Shown piece by piece: positions 3,860 to 23,722 of a stretch of 32,484 nt of DNA (position 1 is its first letter; each line of letters starts with the position of its first letter). The stretch is from a virus (Duplodnaviria; Heunggongvirae; Uroviricota; Caudoviricetes): IMG/VR virus record IMGVR_UViG_2548876858_000013; one strand, 5' to 3'. The notes below the pieces were generated by a model. It saw nothing but the letters and a program-made list of their open reading frames with translations. It was not told where the DNA came from and searched no databases. Position numbers and translations under genes: made by a program.

Positions 3860-6125
3860 AGCCTCCGGGCGTTTTGTCCCTCCGTCAGCATTTGCCGCAG
3901 GCACCGGTAAGGCGTTTACCGGTGCTTATGCATGGAACGCGCCACGCGAGGCTGTCGGGCGCGAAAGACCCCTTACACGTGACGAGATGCGTCAGGTGCA
4001 AGGTGTTTTATCCACGATTAACCGCCTGCCTTACTTTTTGCGCTCGCTGTTTACTTCACGCTATGATTACATCCGGCGCAATAAAAGCCCGGTGCACGGG
4101 TTTTATTTCCTCACAGCCACTTTTCAGCGTCGTTTATGGCCGCGCATTGAGCGCGTGAATCAGCGCCATGAAATGAACACCGACGCGTCGTTACTGTTTC
4201 TGGCAGAGCGTGACCACTATGCGCGCCTGCCGGGAATGAATGACAAGGAGCTGAAAAAATTTGCCGCCCGTATCTCATCGCAGCTTTTCATGATGTATGA
4301 GGAACTCTGCGATGCCTGGGTGGATGCCCATGGCGAAAAAGAATCGCTGTTTACGGATGAGGCGCAGGCTCACCTGTATGGTCATGTTGCTGGCGCTGCA
4401 CGTGTTTTCAATATTTCCCCGCTCTACTGGAAAAAATACCGTAAAGGACAGATGACCACGAGGCAGGCATATTCTGCCATTGCCCGCCTGTTTAACGATG
4501 AGTGGTGGACTCATCAGCTTAAAGGCCAGCGTATGCGCTGGCATGAGGCGTTACTGATTGCTGTCGGGGAGGTCAATAAAGACCGTTCTCCTTATGCCAG
4601 TAAACATGCCATTCGTGATGTGCGTGCACGCCGCCAGGCAAATCTGGAATTTCTTAAATCGTGTGACCTTGAAAACAGGGAAACCGGCGAGCGCATCGAC
4701 CTTATCAGTAAGGTGATGGGCAGTATTTCTAATCCTGAAATTCGCCGGATGGAGCTGATGAACACCATTGCCGGTATTGAGCGTTACGCCGCAGCAGAGG
4801 GTGATGTGGGGATGTTTATCACGCTGACCGCGCCGTCAAAGTATCACCCGACACGTCAGGTCGGAAAAGGCGAAAGTAAAACCGTCCAGCTAAATCACGG
4901 CTGGAACGATGAGGCATTTAATCCAAAGGATGCGCAGCGTTATCTCTGCCATATCTGGAGCCTGATGCGCACGGCATTCAAGGATAATGATTTACAGGTC
5001 TACGGTTTGCGTGTCGTCGAGCCACACCACGACGGAACGCCGCACTGGCATATGATGCTTTTTTGTAATCCGCGCCAGCGTAACCAGATTATCGAAATCA
5101 TGCGTCGCTATGCGCTCAAAGAGGATGGCGACGAAAGAGGAGCCGCGCGAAACCGTTTTCAGGCAAAACACCTTAATCGGGGCGGTGCTGCGGGGTATAT
5201 CGCGAAATACATCTCAAAAAACATCGACGGCTATGCACTGGATGGTCAGCTCGATAACGATACCGGCAGGCCGCTGAAAGATACTGCTGCGGCTGTTACC
5301 GCATGGGCGTCAACGTGGCGCATTCCGCAATTTAAAACGGTTGGTCTGCCGACAATGGGGGCTTACCGTGAACTACGCAAATTGCCTCGCGGTGTCAGCA
5401 TTGCTGATGAGTTTGACGAGCGCGTCGAGGCTGCACGCGCCGCTGCAGACAGTGGTGATTTTGCGTTGTATATCAGCGCGCAGGGCGGGGCAAATGTCCC
5501 GCGCGATTGTCAGACTGTCAGGGTCGCCCGTAGCCCGTCGGATGACGTTAACGAGTACGAGGAAGAAGTCGAGAGAGTGGTCGGCATTTACGCGCCGCAT
5601 CTCGGCGCGCGTCATATTCATATCACCAGAACGACGGACTGGCGCATTGTGCCGAAAGTTCCGGTCGTTGAGCCTTTGACTTTAAAAAGCGGCATCGCCG
5701 CGCCTCGGAGTCCTGTCAATAACTGTGGAAAGCTCACCGGTGGTGATACTTCGTTACCGGCTCCCACACCTTCTGAGCACGCCGCAGCAGTGCTTAATCT
5801 GGTTGATGACGGTGTTATTGAATGGAATGAACCGGAGGTCGTGAGGGCGCTCAGGGGCGCATTAAAACACGACCTGCGAACGCCAAACCGTCAGCAAAGA
5901 AACGGAAGCCCGTTAAAACCACATGAAATTGCACCATCGGCCAGACTGACCCGGTCGGAAAGAATGCAAATTACCCGTATCCGCGTTGACCTTGCTCAGA
6001 ACGGTATCAGGCCGCAGCGATGGGAGCTTGAGGCGCTGGCGCGTGGCGCGACCGTAAATTATTACGGGAAATCTTTCAATTATCAGGTCGCTGATGAGTG
6101 GCCTGGATTTTTGTTACCCATTTGA
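3849..6125 (+). CDS. A: Rolling-circle replication initiation endonuclease (P2 gpA-like)
   Basis: Long ORF 3807..6125; start may be the ATG at 3849 (MAVKASG...) or 3807. Contains an HUH-like motif (PHWHMMLF, about 5038-5060) and a paired-tyrosine motif (GYIAKYISK, about 5195-5220) characteristic of phiX174/P2-type Rep proteins; P2 gene A position. Confidence 0.85.
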   Translation: MAVKASGRFVPPSAFAAGTGKAFTGAYAWNAPREAVGRERPLTRDEMRQVQGVLSTINRLPYFLRSLFTSRYDYIRRNKSPVHGFYFLTATFQRRLWPRIERVNQRHEMNTDASLLFLAERDHYARLPGMNDKELKKFAARISSQLFMMYEELCDAWVDAHGEKESLFTDEAQAHLYGHVAGAARVFNISPLYWKKYRKGQMTTRQAYSAIARLFNDEWWTHQLKGQRMRWHEALLIAVGEVNKDRSPYASKHAIRDVRARRQANLEFLKSCDLENRETGERIDLISKVMGSISNPEIRRMELMNTIAGIERYAAAEGDVGMFITLTAPSKYHPTRQVGKGESKTVQLNHGWNDEAFNPKDAQRYLCHIWSLMRTAFKDNDLQVYGLRVVEPHHDGTPHWHMMLFCNPRQRNQIIEIMRRYALKEDGDERGAARNRFQAKHLNRGGAAGYIAKYISKNIDGYALDGQLDNDTGRPLKDTAAAVTAWASTWRIPQFKTVGLPTMGAYRELRKLPRGVSIADEFDERVEAARAAADSGDFALYISAQGGANVPRDCQTVRVARSPSDDVNEYEEEVERVVGIYAPHLGARHIHITRTTDWRIVPKVPVVEPLTLKSGIAAPRSPVNNCGKLTGGDTSLPAPTPSEHAAAVLNLVDDGVIEWNEPEVVRALRGALKHDLRTPNRQQRNGSPLKPHEIAPSARLTRSERMQITRIRVDLAQNGIRPQRWELEALARGATVNYYGKSFNYQVADEWPGFLLPI

Positions 6126-6385
6126 GTAAAAATGCAGCGTGATTTTATATGCCTTTGAATGGATTATGCGAAGCGCCTCTAAGGCAGATGAGGAGCAATA
6201 GCATGCTGAAGTAGAAGGCTAAATTGTATTGAATCGCTAGCATGTAATTTAAGGCAGCTATTTGATTCGAGTCATAAAAGAGCATCTATTTCGGCTAATA
6301 AAACCATTGCGAGTGACCTTTTGTCGAAGCATAATTCATCTCGAGCGAAGTCTTGCTAGTCTTTCATCGGAATGATGACAGGCGC

Positions 6386-6415
6386 AAAAAAACCACCCTG
6401 GCAGGTGGTTTTTTT
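6386..6415. terminator. Bidirectional intrinsic terminator-like hairpin
   Basis: AAAAAAACCACC / loop CTGGCA / GGTGGTTTTTTT: an A-tract and T-tract flanking a GC stem; 13 nt downstream of the minus-strand small ORF stop and about 260 nt downstream of gene A. Confidence 0.6.
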
Positions 6416-6427
6416 GTTTGAAGCATA

Positions 6428-6541
6428 CTAAAGAATAATACTTACATGGATATTACTGACGTTTACTGACAAACCACTTGGACTACCATATGGATAGCCA
6501 AAGAGGGCCAGAACGAGAATGCAGTAATAGCACTTCTTCAT
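6428..6541 (-). CDS. Small hydrophobic protein (37 aa), candidate small membrane peptide
   Basis: Minus-strand ORF MKKCYYCILVLALFGYPYGSPSGLSVNVSNIHVSIIL, translated by hand. Near-consensus RBS GGAGGAGAT immediately upstream of the ATG and a hairpin terminator just downstream. Below the 60-aa cut-off of the ORF track. Confidence 0.4.
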   Translation of the reverse strand: MKKCYYCILVLALFGYPYGSPSGLSVNVSNIHVSIIL

Positions 6542-7112
6542 ATCTCCTCCTGTAAGCAGAGGGCAATTTCCGCCGATATATGCGCTTCTGAGGCGGAGTT
6601 ACTATTTAGCGAAGTCTTGCCCTGAAATAATGCTCTGTTTAAACGCAAAGTGATCTGGCATATCACCGAACAGAGAGCCTGAACAACACAACATATAGTA
6701 TGTCGTTGTTTCTGGTTGCATTTTATGTTGTGTAATACTGGTTTTGCATCAAGGATGTTTGAGCTTTTTTTGATATAGCTCAAAGTAAAAAGCAGGGACT
6801 ACGGATGATAAGGTATTGAAAGCAATGTAAATTTTTTAAAGTTATTGGTGGCTAAAAAATGCACGGTTTCAATATGGCGGACTTAAATAAGCAATTAAAA
6901 AAGTCATAAATATCACTAAAATCATGGTGTTACGTTTTTTTGTGGGAGCTGCGGTGACGCTTAAGTTGATTTGTCATTAAATAAGCCGTGCATGCAACAA
7001 GTGAATGTTTTTGCATGCGTCGGGGATGCCCGTTCCAGCTGCTCGCGGTCAGAGCTGGTGCGGATCCATAGTATCTATGCAACTGCATTAAAACCGCCAC
7101 ATGAAGCGGGCG

Positions 7113-7131
7113 GGCGAGGCGGGGAAAGCAC
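7113..7131. other. cos site (P2-type 19-nt cohesive end GGCGAGGCGGGGAAAGCAC)
   Basis: Exact 19-mer that I recall as the P2 cohesive end and start of the P2 genome, followed here by TGCGCGCT as I recall for P2; sits in a GC-rich patch within otherwise AT-rich DNA between A and Q. Confidence 0.65.
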
Positions 7132-7355
7132 TGCGCGCTCCATTAACGACCATTACATAATACTATTAGCCTATGAATCGAGTCATGAGATGTTATCTTT
7201 ACGATTCAGGCGAGTGCTTTCGTTACGATGAGTTAGTTTAAGCACACTATCTGCACAAAAAATAATCTGTTGAAGCGATTCATCATTCCTAACGCTCTAG
7301 AGTCTTAAATAAAAATATGTAAAATGCGTAAAATTTTCTGAATTATGGATCAGCT

Positions 7356-8438
7356 ATGCTTGGAACTTCATCACAAAGAGCTATTTCAGTACAACATGTT
7401 GATTTAAATGTAAAGTGTTGGGTCGTTAGACCTGGGATTAAGTATAGATATTTTGCAGACTTCCTTGAACGCAATATGGTTGCTACTGCTCACTTGGATA
7501 GGTTAAGTCCAGATCAAATTGACTTTAATGATGAAATTAACCATGAAAATATTAATCAAAAGGTTGATGGGTTAGATACTATTGGTTCAAGAAATATTCA
7601 TACCCAAATTGAAAATTTCCTCATAGATATGCAGGTCGGTGATGTTGTTTTCACTTTGTCAGGTGATATGGTTGTTCCTGGAGTTATTGCATCTTCCGCG
7701 TATTTTGAGCGTGAATGTTTAGGTAATAATGAAGGGTTTCATGTAAGACGTAGAGTCACATGGGGAGAGCCAGTTCGCAGACGAGAGATTCCATTAGCTC
7801 TTCAGAAATCGTTTACTGCATACCAGACCGTATTCTCTTTGGGCGGGAAGTCAGAAGAAGTACTGCATTGGTTAATGTCATTCTTTATAACGGATAATAT
7901 TTTCTGTACTAGCTTAAGAGTCGAGCAAGCAGAAGCCATTCGGCATCATACTCTTAAGCAGCTGGCTGAGCTGGTCGATAGAGTGCAGGTACTTGCGCTA
8001 TTAATTGGCGAAGAGTTTGATGGCGAGTATACAAACGAAGTTGTTCAGTTTGAGATGGAAAGACTTTCTAATAATGGAGAGTTATCCTTGACTGCTCAAC
8101 AAATGTTGATGTCTCCGGGGGATGTTTGGCTACAATTTAAAACAAATAATAGAAAGGCCGGAATTGCGTTTATGTTAATTATGGGGGCCATTTTTAATCA
8201 TGATGTAGCCTTCGCTTCAACGGTTGATAATCGTATAAGTGAGGAACTTCGATCTCATATTGAAGGGAAAAAAGAGGTTGCAATGGATGGATTAAACTTT
8301 GATAGAGTTTCTCAAGTTCTAGAGTTGCGTTTAAAAAGACAAAATAGAGGCTTTGTTTCTGCTCGTCCAACGAACCGTGAGATCGGACAGGGGATCAATT
8401 TCCCTGAAGATGGTGATGCGAGGCATGCGAGTGACTAA
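7356..8438 (+). CDS. Hypothetical cargo protein, 360 aa, soluble; first gene of a two-gene operon
   Basis: Long ORF in AT-rich DNA; weak RBS (GGAT), so the true start could be downstream. No nucleotidyltransferase GS..DxD motif and no clear HEPN or PD-(D/E)xK motif seen by eye. Confidence 0.7.
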   Translation: MLGTSSQRAISVQHVDLNVKCWVVRPGIKYRYFADFLERNMVATAHLDRLSPDQIDFNDEINHENINQKVDGLDTIGSRNIHTQIENFLIDMQVGDVVFTLSGDMVVPGVIASSAYFERECLGNNEGFHVRRRVTWGEPVRRREIPLALQKSFTAYQTVFSLGGKSEEVLHWLMSFFITDNIFCTSLRVEQAEAIRHHTLKQLAELVDRVQVLALLIGEEFDGEYTNEVVQFEMERLSNNGELSLTAQQMLMSPGDVWLQFKTNNRKAGIAFMLIMGAIFNHDVAFASTVDNRISEELRSHIEGKKEVAMDGLNFDRVSQVLELRLKRQNRGFVSARPTNREIGQGINFPEDGDARHASD

Positions 8439-8440
8439 CT

Positions 8441-9130
8441 ATGAACTTTGAATTTGTAAAAGAACACTGGCTGATAATAGGCATGCTATTCATAGCATGT
8501 CTATTATTAATTTTAAAATTCAAAGATATTTACAGAACACACGATCAGTTTAATAACGTCGTGATGTCATTGTGCGCTGTTTTGACACTTGTGTGGGGAG
8601 GATATACTTTTGATGTTTTGCACCAAAGGGATAAGGCAGAAGCTGATCTTATAGAGTTAAGAAATAGAATTAGAAATACAGAATCGACATTTTTTAATGT
8701 TGACGTTAATGTTGTTAAAATCGATGATGTGTTTTATATAAAGCCTATTGTGACTATTAGGAATAACAGTAATGAGCGAATTTATGTGAAGCTTAATAAC
8801 AAGTCCCTTGCTGTTAGTCGTGTTTTATCGGCCGGTGCAAAGCAAGTCGCTACGGAAGTTTTTTATCCAAATTATTATGAGGAGTTGGCTGTTCTTAATG
8901 AAGAAAGTAGCTCGCAAGGAAAAGCTAAAAATATACCTTTATATGACATATCCGTTCCTATCTCTGCTGAAAGACGCTTGAACTATCTTGTTTCGACAAA
9001 AGAAAAAGGAATGTATTATGTAACATTTAGTGCTGAGGCAATGAACGAAGATGGCTCGCCTGTTTCTAAATACATAAATGGGAAAAAATCTATATGGTTT
9101 TCTTCTTCATATATTGAAGTTAAAGATTGA
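8441..9130 (+). CDS. Hypothetical cargo membrane protein, 229 aa, two N-terminal TM helices plus a beta-rich-looking soluble domain
   Basis: ATG 2 nt after the upstream stop (TAACTATG). Hydrophobic segments WLIIGMLFIACLLLIL and VVMSLCAVLTLVWGGYTF; the remainder is rich in alternating hydrophobic/polar stretches. AT-rich. Confidence 0.7.
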   Translation: MNFEFVKEHWLIIGMLFIACLLLILKFKDIYRTHDQFNNVVMSLCAVLTLVWGGYTFDVLHQRDKAEADLIELRNRIRNTESTFFNVDVNVVKIDDVFYIKPIVTIRNNSNERIYVKLNNKSLAVSRVLSAGAKQVATEVFYPNYYEELAVLNEESSSQGKAKNIPLYDISVPISAERRLNYLVSTKEKGMYYVTFSAEAMNEDGSPVSKYINGKKSIWFSSSYIEVKD

Positions 9131-9225: not shown

Positions 9226-10254
9226 TTAATTAGATTCTAGACTGTAATCTTTAAAGCGGATGACCTCCTGACCGAGCCAGCCGTTTATCTCGCGGATCCT
9301 GTCCTGTAACGGGATAAGCTCATTGCGGACAAAGACCTTTGCCACTTTCTCAATATCACCCAGCGACCCGACGTTCTCCGGCTTGCCGCCCATCAACTGA
9401 AAGGGGATGCGGTGCGCGTCCAGCAGGTCAGCGGCGCTGGCTTTTTTGATATTAAAAAAATCGTCCTTCGTTGCCACTTCACTGAGCGGGATAATTTTAA
9501 TGCCGTCGGCTTTCCCCTGTGGGGCATAGAGAAACAGATTTTTAAAGTTATTGCGGCCTTTCGACTTAACCATGTTTTCGCGAAGCATTTCGATATCGTT
9601 GCGATCCTGCACGGCATCGGTGACGTACATGATGTATCCGGCATGTGCGCCATTTTCGTAATACTTGCGGCGGAACAGCGTGGCCGACTCATTCAGCCAG
9701 GCAGAGTTAAGGGCGCTGAGATATTCCGGCAGGCCGTACAGCTCCTGATTAATATCCGGCTCCAGCAGGTGAAACACGGAGCCGGGCGCGAAGGCTGTCG
9801 GCTCGTTGAAGGACGGCACCCACCAGTAAACATCCTCTTCCACGCCACGGCGGGTATATTTTGCCGGTGAGGTTTCCAGTCTGATGACCTTACCGGTGGT
9901 GCTGTAACGCTTTTCCAGAAATGCATTACCGAACACCAGAAAATCCAGCACAAAGCGGCTGAAATCCTGCTGGGACAGCCACGGATGCGGGATAAATGTC
10001 GAGGCCAGAATATTGCGTTTGACGTAAATCGGGGAGCTGTGATGCACGGCAGCACGCAGGCTTTTTGCCAGACCGGTAAAGCTGATTGGTGGCTCATACC
10101 ATCTGCCGTTACTGATGCACTCGACATAATCCAGAATGTCACGGCGGTCGAGTACCGGCACAGGCTCGCCAAAGGTGAATGCCTCCATTTTCGGGGCGCT
10201 GGCGGTCATTTTTTTTGCCGCAGGTTGCGGTGTTTTCCCTTTTTTCTTGCTCAT
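9226..10254 (-). CDS. Q: Portal protein (P2 gpQ-like)
   Basis: 342-aa ORF, leftward, next to the terminase gene; matches P2 Q position and approximate length. Confidence 0.9.
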   Translation of the reverse strand: MSKKKGKTPQPAAKKMTASAPKMEAFTFGEPVPVLDRRDILDYVECISNGRWYEPPISFTGLAKSLRAAVHHSSPIYVKRNILASTFIPHPWLSQQDFSRFVLDFLVFGNAFLEKRYSTTGKVIRLETSPAKYTRRGVEEDVYWWVPSFNEPTAFAPGSVFHLLEPDINQELYGLPEYLSALNSAWLNESATLFRRKYYENGAHAGYIMYVTDAVQDRNDIEMLRENMVKSKGRNNFKNLFLYAPQGKADGIKIIPLSEVATKDDFFNIKKASAADLLDAHRIPFQLMGGKPENVGSLGDIEKVAKVFVRNELIPLQDRIREINGWLGQEVIRFKDYSLESN

Positions 10255-21592: not shown

Positions 21593-23722
21593 ATGAGCAC
21601 AAAATTCAGAACCGTTATCACCACTGCCGGTGCAGCAAAGCTGGCAGCGGCAACCGCGCCGGGAGGGCGGAAGGTCAACATTACCACGATGGCCGTCGGG
21701 GATGGCGGTGGTAAATTGCCTGTCCCGGATGCCGGACAGACCGGGCTTATCCATGAAGTCTGGCGACATACGCTGAACAAAATCAGCCAGGACAAACGAA
21801 ACAGTAATTATATTATCGCAGAGCTGGTTATTCCGCCGGAGGTGGGTGGTTTCTGGATGCGTGAGCTTGGCCTGTACGATGATGCGGGAACGTTAATTGC
21901 CGTGGCGAACATGGCCGAAAGTTATAAACCTGCCCTTGCCGAAGGCTCAGGGCGTTCGCAGACCTGCCGCATGGTCATCATCGTCAGCAGTGTGGCCTCA
22001 GTGGTGCTGACCATTGACACCACAACGGTGATGGCGACGCAGGATTACGTTGATGACAAAATTGCAGAGCATGAACAGTCACGACGTCACCCGGACGCCT
22101 CGCTGACCGCAAAAGGTTTTACTCAGTTAAGCAATGCGACCAACAGCACGTCTGAAACACTGGCCGCAACGCCGAAAGCGGTAAAGGCCGCCTATGACCT
22201 GGCTAACGGGAAATATACTGCGCAGGATGCCACCACAGCGCGAAAAGGTCTTGTCCAGCTCAGTAGTGCCACCAACAGCACGTCTGAAACGCTCGCCGCA
22301 ACACCAAAAGCGGTAAAGGCCGCGTATGACCTTGCTAACGGGAAATACACTGCACAGGACGCCACCACAGCGCGAAAAGGTCTTGTCCAGCTCAGTAGCG
22401 TCACCAACAGCGATTCTGAAATGCTTGCGGCAACGCCAAAGGCGGTTAAGACAGCGTATGACCTTGCTAATGGGAAATACACTGCACAGGATGCCACCAC
22501 GGCGCGGAAAGGTCTTGTTCAGCTCAGTAGCGCCACCAACAGCGATTCTGAAACGCTGGCTGCAACGCCAAAGGCGGTTAAGACAGCGTATGACCTTGCT
22601 AACGGGAAATACACTGCACAGGACGCCACCACAGCGAGAAAAGGCCTTGTCCAGCTCAGTAGCGCCACCAACAGCGATTCTGATACGCTGGCCGCAACAC
22701 CAAAAGCGGTGAGGTCTGCCTATGACAATGCTGAGAAACGTCTTCAGAAAGATCAGAACGGCGCGGATATTCCTGATAAAAGATTATTCCTGCGCAATAT
22801 TGGAGCAACAAATTCAACAACCATGTCTTTTAGTGGTGGTACAGGATGGTTCAGGCTGGCAACTGTAACCATGCCACAGGCCAGTTCCGTGGTTTACATA
22901 AGTCTGATTGGTGGTGCCGGGTATAATGTTAACTCCCCTATGCAGGCTGGTATATCTGAACTTGTTCTTCGTGCGGGAAATGGAAATCCAAAAGGTCTTA
23001 CTGGTGCGTTATGGCGACGGACCTCGGTTGGATTTACTAATTTTGCATGGGTGAATACATCCGGTGATACCTATGATGTTTATGTTGAAATAGGTAATTA
23101 CGCCACAGGTGTTAATATTCAGTGGGATTATACCAGTAACGCCAGCGTAACGATTCATACATCACCAACTTATACAGCGAATAAACCAACAGGCCTGACA
23201 GATGGAACTGTATATGTAATTTACAGTTCGCACATTAAACCGACTGCTGCTGATGTTGGGGCGTTATCATTATCTGGAGGTCAATTGAATGGTGCACTGG
23301 GCATCGGTACATCCAGTGCTCTTGGCGGTAACTCGATTGTTTTGGGTGATAATGACACGGGCTTTAAACAAAATGGCGACGGTAATCTGGATGTTTATGC
23401 TAATAACGTCCATGTTATGCGCTTTGTCTCCGGTAGCATTCAAAGTAATAAAACCATAAATATTACGGGGCGTGTTAATCCCTCGGATTACGGTAACTTT
23501 GATTCCCGCTATGTCCGGGATATCCGGCTTGGTGGTGCTGCCACATACAAACCTGCGAACAATGGCATGACATGGACACATCAGGCACCATCCGGGTGTG
23601 TATATTCCGGCATTATTGTTCAGGATACCGGCTCAAACTCTGCCGATAACATTGGTGGCGTATATTACAGGCCGGTGCAGAAATACATTAACGGGACATG
23701 GTATAACGTGGTGCAGGTATAA
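21593..23722 (+). CDS. H: Tail fiber protein (P2 gpH-like) with internal tandem repeats
   Basis: 709 aa after the baseplate genes; conserved N-terminal region, a central block of 44-aa tandem repeats, and a more AT-rich C-terminal region. Confidence 0.9.
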   Translation: MSTKFRTVITTAGAAKLAAATAPGGRKVNITTMAVGDGGGKLPVPDAGQTGLIHEVWRHTLNKISQDKRNSNYIIAELVIPPEVGGFWMRELGLYDDAGTLIAVANMAESYKPALAEGSGRSQTCRMVIIVSSVASVVLTIDTTTVMATQDYVDDKIAEHEQSRRHPDASLTAKGFTQLSNATNSTSETLAATPKAVKAAYDLANGKYTAQDATTARKGLVQLSSATNSTSETLAATPKAVKAAYDLANGKYTAQDATTARKGLVQLSSVTNSDSEMLAATPKAVKTAYDLANGKYTAQDATTARKGLVQLSSATNSDSETLAATPKAVKTAYDLANGKYTAQDATTARKGLVQLSSATNSDSDTLAATPKAVRSAYDNAEKRLQKDQNGADIPDKRLFLRNIGATNSTTMSFSGGTGWFRLATVTMPQASSVVYISLIGGAGYNVNSPMQAGISELVLRAGNGNPKGLTGALWRRTSVGFTNFAWVNTSGDTYDVYVEIGNYATGVNIQWDYTSNASVTIHTSPTYTANKPTGLTDGTVYVIYSSHIKPTAADVGALSLSGGQLNGALGIGTSSALGGNSIVLGDNDTGFKQNGDGNLDVYANNVHVMRFVSGSIQSNKTINITGRVNPSDYGNFDSRYVRDIRLGGAATYKPANNGMTWTHQAPSGCVYSGIIVQDTGSNSADNIGGVYYRPVQKYINGTWYNVVQV
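22113..22722 (+). repeat. In-frame tandem repeat inside the tail fiber gene, about 4.6 copies of a 132-bp (44-aa) unit
   Basis: Repeated peptide KGLVQLSSATNS(T/D)SETLAATPKAVKAAYDLANGKYTAQDATTAR; copies begin near 22113, 22245, 22377, 22509 and 22641 with a few substitutions. Confidence 0.85.

Follow-up and report, generated by a model that had tools for sequence, protein, structure and literature searches.

The 32,484-nucleotide window analysed here (IMG/VR virus record IMGVR_UViG_2548876858_000013, Caudoviricetes; the window is the whole stretch of DNA) is a P2-like prophage whose gene A, encoding the replication endonuclease, ends at position 6125. The cos site, GGCGAGGCGGGGAAAGCAC, was read straight from the letters of the window at 7113-7131, and gene Q, encoding the portal protein, lies on the minus strand at 9226-10254. 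The interval between gpA and gpQ is a published P2 hotspot that holds old and tin in P2 (PMC9122126), and the segment 6126-7112 is the gene A side of this hotspot. The original prediction, made from the sequence alone, had described the segment as AT-rich, free of credible open reading frames (ORFs) of 60 amino acids (aa) or more, and situated in the classical tin/old slot. All three points were confirmed. The GC content was 0.33-0.45 over 6100-7000, compared to 0.50-0.60 within gene A, and the segment sits between the gene A stop codon (6125) and cos (7113-7131), as do old and tin in P2. Two longer ORFs exist mechanically, and each was discounted: an 81-aa ORF with a TTG start (6538-6783, minus strand) has stops or frameshifts in relatives, and an 86-aa ORF (6971-7231, plus strand) spans the cos cut site. 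The 81-aa ORF matched nothing in Pfam, NCBIfam, PHROGs or PADLOC. No protein-coding exclusion gene of the P2 tin/old type was found, 6126-7112 being without a long conserved ORF. The segment contains a compact module with a 37-aa peptide gene on the minus strand and a predicted small RNA gene on the plus strand, which we read as a probable type I toxin-antitoxin-like locus. Its features are as follows.

6262-6834, no strand: the whole mobile module, defined by the span over which the prophage is homologous to the copies in Klebsiella, Citrobacter and Kluyvera
6307-6335, plus strand: predicted small RNA promoter, with -35 TTGCGA, a 17-bp spacer and -10 CATAAT (promoter scan, 9 of 12 matches)
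6343-6420, plus strand: predicted antisense small RNA of ~77 nt, the candidate antitoxin, delimited by its conserved promoter at one end and the terminator at the other
6344-6356, plus strand: repeat copy 1, the predicted 5' seed of the small RNA; exact, and starting 8 nt past the -10 in every lineage
6359-6383, plus strand: SL1, a hairpin of the predicted small RNA (per-variant folds)
6381-6713, minus strand: predicted peptide (toxin) mRNA of ~330 nt (fold and covariation)
6385-6416, no strand: bidirectional intrinsic terminator common to both convergent transcripts (inverted repeat I3)
6428-6541 (6541->6428), minus strand: 37-aa hydrophobic peptide gene, the candidate toxin, MKKCYYCILVLALFGYPYGSPSGLSVNVSNIHVSIIL; intact and under purifying selection
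6544-6551, minus strand: strong Shine-Dalgarno (SD) sequence AGGAGGAG, 2 nt upstream of the ATG, with its GGAGG core 4 nt upstream
6608-6620, minus strand: repeat copy 2, the predicted seed-binding site, where the mRNA reads GCAAGACUUCGCU, ~67-79 nt upstream of the AUG
6633-6675, minus strand: conserved two-tier hairpin in the 5' untranslated region (UTR) of the mRNA, with helices 2 and 3 100% paired
6720-6749, minus strand: predicted peptide-mRNA promoter, with -35-like ATGCAA (6749->6744), an 18-bp spacer and -10 TAAAAT (6725->6720) (conservation)

The peptide gene was the sole ORF of the region free of stops and frameshifts in all lineages. It was intact in 31 of 31 distinct module sequences, with a length of 37-38 aa and no indels. 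The ratio of non-synonymous to synonymous polymorphism (pN/pS) was 0.1-0.5, and between lineages the synonymous differences reached 0.4-0.7 per site, compared to 0.17-0.25 for the non-synonymous ones. Comparison of seven representative peptides showed that the pattern M.....CILVL.L.GYP.G..S..S..VS was invariant. The grand average of hydropathicity (GRAVY) was 0.7-0.95, with a hydrophobic stretch at residues ~4-16 after a short basic N-terminus. By its length, GRAVY, conservation and selection, the gene has the properties of one for a small hydrophobic, membrane-directed peptide, as expected of a type I system. Six of the seven representatives had no charged residue past position 3, and the Kluyvera peptide had one aspartate at position 20. 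A tryptophan after the hydrophobic stretch was found only in most plasmid and other non-phage variants. Other small ORFs of the region, namely 6262-6375 on the plus strand and 6145-6285, 6538-6783 (the 81-aa frame), 6602-6721 and 6930-7100 on the minus strand, were ruled out by stops or frameshifts in relatives.

The peptide is almost absent from protein databases. Zero Pfam or NCBIfam families were found at E<=1 and none in PADLOC, and the best PHROGs match reached only E=0.41. A padded 43-aa query retrieved only 2 proteins, and an exhaustive HMMER search with the peptide retrieved only 8 proteins. In a collection of 5.8 billion protein clusters, only two contained the peptide. As a separate observation, a 68-aa protein from one NCBI genome (P0001) is identical to the window peptide at residues 1-37 apart from L13S and reads on through the terminator region, which suggests stop-codon loss in that genome.

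Upstream of the peptide gene, TTGATGCAAA and TArAATG (TAAAAT or TAGAAT at the -10) were conserved in 12 lineages, and the spacer between them was divergent. The mRNA is predicted to start near 6713. The ~330-nt transcript would be highly structured, with a minimum free energy of -94.7 kcal/mol (z -2.5 against shuffles). Its consensus structure contained 8 pairs with double-sided changes, compared to 2.4±1.0 in column shuffles (0/500) and 0-3 in slid controls. For example, the hairpin at 6633-6675 showed UA->CG compensations twice in a metagenome locus (L061) and an AU->GC compensation once in locus L054. The GGAGG core was kept in nearly all lineages. An upstream anti-SD was predicted to pair with the SD, and this stem (helix 6) shows compensatory changes; opening the region from the SD to the AUG was predicted to cost 5-12 kcal/mol in every lineage. 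The fold predictions place the SD in a sequestered state in every lineage. At the promoter of this mRNA, we also noticed an insertion in another genome. In Escherichia coli CUPS TF 6/1_01, a degraded P2-like prophage carries the IS4-like element ISVsa5 (L006, 4626-5954), which is accompanied by what looks like a 9-bp duplication and sits precisely at the predicted -35 (equivalent to window ~6740-6748). This insertion might change the expression of the candidate toxin.

On the plus strand, the promoter elements TTGCGr and CATAAT were kept in every lineage examined, and the 17-bp spacer sequence diverged. The predicted small RNA folds into three parts, a 5' seed, the hairpin SL1 and the terminator hairpin. 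The sequence from repeat copy 1 to the terminator varied by lineage, and 10/10 distinct variants folded into a hairpin, with z from -1.0 to -4.2. The sequence alignment of this middle hairpin was out of structural register, and z-scores from the fold of each variant replaced positional covariation counts. In 9/10 variants, SL1 was more stable on the plus strand than as the reverse complement because of its G.U pairs.

The strong bidirectional terminator proposed in the original prediction was verified. Its arms (6385-6397 and 6404-6416) are 13 nt long and 100% complementary, separated by a 6-nt loop, and the inverted repeat is preceded by an A7 run and followed by a T7 run. A simple terminator scan missed it, probably because the A and T runs belong to the extended stem. 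The stem was invariant in all lineages, and the loop was invariant except for one base in Citrobacter. An Rfam scan of 5900-7500 at E<=1 found no family at the gathering threshold. The best matches, RNAI (26.2 bits versus 47 required) and Phe_leader (26.2 versus 55), were both driven by the terminator hairpin. The Rfam antitoxin and antisense families (Sok, IstR, OhsC, OrzO, Rdl, Sib, SymR, PtaRNA1, RNAI and others) likewise gave no match at the gathering threshold. The terminator core (6387-6413) also gave short matches of at least 99% identity in ~670 plasmid records, mostly of mobilizable plasmids, and in Escherichia virus TH38. The hairpin may be common to ColE1-type replicons or may be a recurrent terminator cassette.

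The original prediction had further reported a 13-bp direct repeat, AGCGAAGTCTTGC, flanking the terminator and a small ORF. The repeat is indeed exact at both 6344-6356 and 6608-6620, and the small ORF is the 37-aa gene at 6428-6541 on the minus strand. Allowing up to 2 mismatches, the 13-mer had 3 matches in the window versus 0.96 expected. Besides the tandem array of a tail-fibre-like ORF, the window had no other exact direct repeat of at least 13 bp with its copies within 400 bp. That array (21979-22770) consists of five copies of a 132-nt unit with 61-100% identity and lies in a plus-strand ORF of 709 aa (21593-23722) that is presumably the tail-fibre gene. By simple arithmetic, such a repeat pair is expected by chance ~0.006 times in this 1 kb and ~0.2 times in the whole window. 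On these figures, the repeat by itself is only mildly unusual, and its significance comes from its conservation in relatives. Both copies were kept across 26% divergence while the flanks diverged.

Since the repeat is direct and the two units are convergent, the plus-strand RNA would start with GAGCGAAGUCUUGC and find its complement inside the 5' UTR of the mRNA. The potential seed duplex is 13-18 nt long, depending on the lineage, and every difference between the copies was wobble-compatible or compensated. A T in copy 1 against a C in copy 2 (U.G) was found in the W class at the position right after the common GTCTTG, and in the window and ZH177 classes one position further on. Klebsiella variicola and Kluyvera have a G in copy 1 against an A in copy 2 (G.U), and the metagenome locus L061 has a concerted C->T change in both copies, giving U-A. 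A second complementarity, a full match of ~35 nt between the mRNA and the small RNA, was predicted at the terminator. RNAduplex scored the seed pairing at -31.7 versus -26.1±3.1 for shuffles, whose minimum was -40.1, a comparison that says little about the seed because the program permits long interior loops. A small RNA gene adjacent to the candidate toxin gene and complementary to its mRNA, as in type I systems, is predicted from the sequence.

The extent of the module was defined by comparison with its relatives. Local blastn bounded the phage-plasmid homology at 6262-6834 (573 bp), with 72.5-74% identity over this span to the plasmid loci L036-L038 and L057-L060; the matches to L054 and L047 were slightly shorter. 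A sensitive plasmid search aligned 6327-6790 to ~390 large plasmids, with ~74% identity over 95% of the length. Nearly all of these were from Klebsiella, many from clinical isolates, and those examined were mostly IncFIB/IncFII. The plasmid neighbourhoods were non-phage and unlike one another, with ATP-binding cassette (ABC) transporters, IS66 or IS3 elements, Mla-like genes or a RES-domain gene. More copies were found in Citrobacter freundii, Kluyvera georgiana and one metagenome contig. A scan of genome contigs for the repeat-pair pattern returned 18 loci, of which only those in Kluyvera and Citrobacter were real; the remaining loci, from unrelated phyla, look like chance matches. By its homology span, the module is a discrete mobile unit of ~570 bp.

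Among phages and chromosomes, matches to the 987-bp segment came from eight phage records and from 183 E. coli genomes, none of which annotates anything there. The core (6300-6790) was present in 152/5426 complete E. coli genomes, in all 152 of which the region is unannotated in RefSeq, and the module region was unannotated on the plasmids as well. The 3' end of the P2-like gene A was present in 1682 E. coli genomes, and the module thus accompanies it in ~9% (152 versus 1682). The E. coli copies fell into four sequence classes of ~99, 94, 90 and 86% identity, and the cargo next to them differs. It can be a SIR2 protein, an ImmA/IrrE protease accompanied by two hypothetical proteins, or an AAA ATPase plus one hypothetical protein; in the window, it is a pair starting with a match to PDC-S02. 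Being rare among gene A carriers and having varied cargo nearby, the module is therefore accessory cargo rather than backbone. That relatives might carry the sequence as conserved backbone, as the original prediction had considered, was borne out in part. The module is conserved beside different cargo and 6961-7112 is backbone, but the module occurs in only ~9% of the genomes with gene A. By this comparison, the module is a conserved accessory cargo that is kept independently of its neighbours, and the true backbone is only 6961-7112. The remaining parts of the segment are as follows.

6126-6261, no strand: linker from the gene A stop codon to the module, found in module-bearing prophages only and without a conserved ORF
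6835-6960, no strand: AT-rich spacer, only partly common to the prophage classes
6961-7112, no strand: cos-proximal P2-like backbone, where query positions 836-987 match many P2-like phages

The backbone part matched P2-like phages at the right genome end, as well as many E. coli prophages without the module. A promoter-like site from the promoter scan at 6895-6922, within the spacer, was no more than expected by chance. On the portal side of cos, the window has its own protein cargo of two AT-rich ORFs. The first (7356-8438, 360 aa) has matches to PDC-S02, a defence candidate of PADLOC (E 2.4e-12), and to phrog_10226, and the second (8441-9130, 229 aa) has an N-terminal membrane-like segment and belongs to no family. 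In E. coli M172-1 (L005), the 987 bp between gene A and cos are 99.9% identical to those of the window, and one 812-aa SIR2-family protein (5103-7541) lies between cos and the portal gene in place of the two ORFs. Between these two prophages, the cargo beyond cos is swapped and the module is unchanged.

We observed the anatomy of the locus, its conservation, selection on a coding frame and RNA covariation. The suggestion of the original prediction that small RNA or peptide genes might lie in the region is supported by this comparative evidence, for the 37-aa peptide gene as well as for the small RNA gene that converges on it. We propose that the two form a new type I toxin-antitoxin-like family, laid out like the Gram-positive par/Fst locus but with an unrelated peptide, and we put the probability of this reading at about two in three. 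Transcription, toxicity, repression and the biological role of the module are what we infer, and the toxicity of the peptide would follow, by analogy, from the architecture and the distribution on mobile elements. In the proposed mechanism, the minus strand would yield the structured mRNA of ~330 nt (~6713->6381) encoding the peptide, and the conserved sigma-70 promoter on the plus strand would drive the ~77-nt small RNA (~6343-6420), with both genes converging on the single bidirectional terminator. The small RNA would bind the peptide mRNA through the ~35-nt terminator hairpins and through its first 13-18 nt, which would contact the 5' UTR. Binding may hold the already sequestered ribosome-binding site closed, block an upstream ribosome standby site or activating structure, or trigger cleavage; standby-site block and RNase III cleavage appear equally possible. 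The membrane-active peptide would be made only when the level of the small RNA drops, as might happen if the element is lost or if an infecting phage shuts off transcription.

Several points weigh against this proposal. The -35 of the peptide-mRNA promoter is weak, and the site is absent from the list of the consensus scan. The covariation counts used a structure that had itself been derived from these sequences, and the paired fraction is inflated as a result. The 11-nt core of the repeat is invariant, with only three peripheral pairing-compatible changes, one of them double-sided. Since the core never varies, the repeat shows conservation with a few pairing-compatible changes rather than strong covariation. 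The seed target lies ~70 nt from the start codon, and the route to a block of translation is not apparent. We tried a model in which the anti-SD can pair with either the SD or the small RNA site, the two being in competition (an "anti-anti-SD" model), and its support was weak and inconsistent: blocking the small RNA site raised the cost of opening the SD by only 0.3-3.4 kcal/mol in 10/12 lineages, and the effect was absent in 2/12. The C-terminal half of the peptide is polar or beta-like and uncharged, unlike that of most type I toxins. In addition, plasmid pKPN3 of Klebsiella MGH 78578, a strain with published differential RNA sequencing (dRNA-seq), was scanned over 150 of its 176 kb, and no copy of the module was found there.

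Comparison with known systems showed that the closest layout is that of the par locus of Enterococcus faecalis pAD1 (Fst mRNA RNA I and antitoxin RNA II) and the Gram-positive par-like loci. In the par locus of pAD1, the promoters are convergent, the hairpins of a bidirectional terminator initiate contact between the two RNAs, direct repeats are present, and a stem sequesters the SD (PMC7472228). The module shares with par the convergent promoters and the single bidirectional terminator with mutually complementary hairpins. Both also have direct repeats that are read in opposite directions and so provide a second complementarity at the 5' end, an intramolecular stem that sequesters the SD, a small hydrophobic peptide and a location on plasmids and phages. 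However, the module has one repeat pair only, as opposed to DRa plus DRb in par. Its repeat (target 6620->6608, AUG at 6541) lies ~70 nt upstream of the start codon and does not cover the translation initiation region, whereas the par repeat lies over it. Furthermore, the hosts of the module are Enterobacteriaceae. The peptide has no similarity to the Fst/Ldr superfamily and lacks its hallmarks of a transmembrane helix, a conserved tryptophan, a highly charged C-terminal tail and a P/D/S/TxxxG motif as a set, the charged tail in particular being missing. No match was found to Hok/Gef, Ldr, Ibs, TisB, ShoB, ZorO, DinQ or other curated toxin profiles (Pfam and NCBIfam at E<=1; PADLOC; PHROGs, E=0.41).

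Among the systems of the same host group, the small RNA genes of tisB/IstR-1, zorO/OrzO, dinQ/AgrB and shoB/OhsC are separate and divergently transcribed, with no terminator in common with the toxin gene. They show no peptide or RNA homology to the module. These systems (see also PMC3919570) resemble the module in having a small hydrophobic peptide, a long structured 5' UTR, and a small RNA whose pairing of ~13-20 nt takes place at a distance upstream from the ribosome-binding site. The module also resembles hok/Sok (plasmid R1; prophage hokW/sokW) as a type I module of plasmids and prophages with a folded mRNA of ~300-400 nt and SD occlusion, and a long-range 5'-3' pairing similar to that of hok was predicted weakly (helix 1). 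Sok overlaps the mok/hok leader in cis, and Hok is a peptide of ~50 aa in a defined family. In contrast, the peptide of the module lies outside the Hok family, and the module has no coupling reading frame. As for P2 old/tin and the hotspot defence systems, the module occupies the same slot, gpA-gpQ next to cos (PMC9122126). Those systems are protein-coding and catalogued by gene arrangement, unlike a 37-aa ORF with an RNA gene, and the module co-occurs with them without replacing them. In a text search of that hotspot survey (PMC9122126), neither "non-coding" nor "small RNA" was mentioned.

The strongest alternative, which we regard as clearly less probable than a type I locus, is that the peptide is a tightly regulated, non-toxic small membrane protein with an ordinary antisense regulator, and that no addiction or abortive module exists. 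Such a peptide could be a lysogenic-conversion or exclusion factor, for example, or a modulator of a membrane protein. All of the comparative evidence for two genes fits this alternative equally well, and the missing charged tail of the Fst/Ldr-type toxins and the lack of a match to any toxin family model are in its favour. However, the long structured 5' UTR, the SD sequestered by 5-12 kcal/mol, a dedicated antisense RNA and the spread over plasmids and prophages in unrelated gene contexts are all standard marks of genes with a product that has to be kept off. The tie of such hallmarks to toxic products is established knowledge on type I systems (PMC7472228; significance statement of PMC11228461).

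Two further explanations have very little probability left. One is the decayed or deleted cargo slot offered in the original prediction. On this view, the segment would hold non-functional remnants of lost tin/old-like genes, the terminator would serve the early operon only, and the repeat would be a chance match or a recombination scar. The AT-richness, the lack of a long ORF, the lack of annotation in the 152 RefSeq genomes and the mild improbability of the 13-mer alone at the window scale would suit it, but the comparative data have largely refuted it: the core is conserved beyond neutral expectation, as a discrete 573-bp unit on prophages and unrelated plasmids of several genera, with an indel-free ORF under purifying selection, promoter-shaped conservation, RNA covariation above controls, and both repeat copies maintained while the flanks diverge. 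It is just as improbable that the features act at the DNA level, as operator- or iteron-like protein sites or as packaging or replication signals near cos, with the small ORF incidental; the position between the replication gene and cos and the invariance of the repeat core and terminator, as binding sites can show, would be consistent with this, but the module also lies on plasmids, with neither a cos nor a P2 gene A anywhere near, its G.U-containing helices favour one transcribed strand per element, the substitution pattern of the ORF is that of a coding sequence, and the true cos-flanking backbone is another segment (6961-7112).

Neither gene was recognised by any Rfam, Pfam, NCBIfam, PHROGs or PADLOC model, and full-text literature searches, whose coverage is incomplete, returned no description of the locus or of a named family. 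We provisionally regard the module as a previously undescribed family. A more specific role is conceivable, and we put it forward tentatively, as rather doubtful: a new type I family of Enterobacteriaceae, par-convergent or par-related, could be an annotation-invisible component of the P2 hotspot, either as an abortive-infection trigger on phage transcription shut-off or as an addiction element that locks defence cargo and IncF plasmids in their hosts. Protein-coding genes are the basis of surveys of phage defence hotspots and of plasmid annotation. Should the module be a functional pair of toxin and antisense RNA, it would be a new family among the type I systems, and the par-type layout of convergent genes, a common terminator and a direct-repeat seed would not be limited to Gram-positives. 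An RNA-controlled membrane toxin would then accompany the cargo of the P2 hotspot and widespread IncF-type plasmids of Klebsiella, where it could aid plasmid persistence or phage defence.

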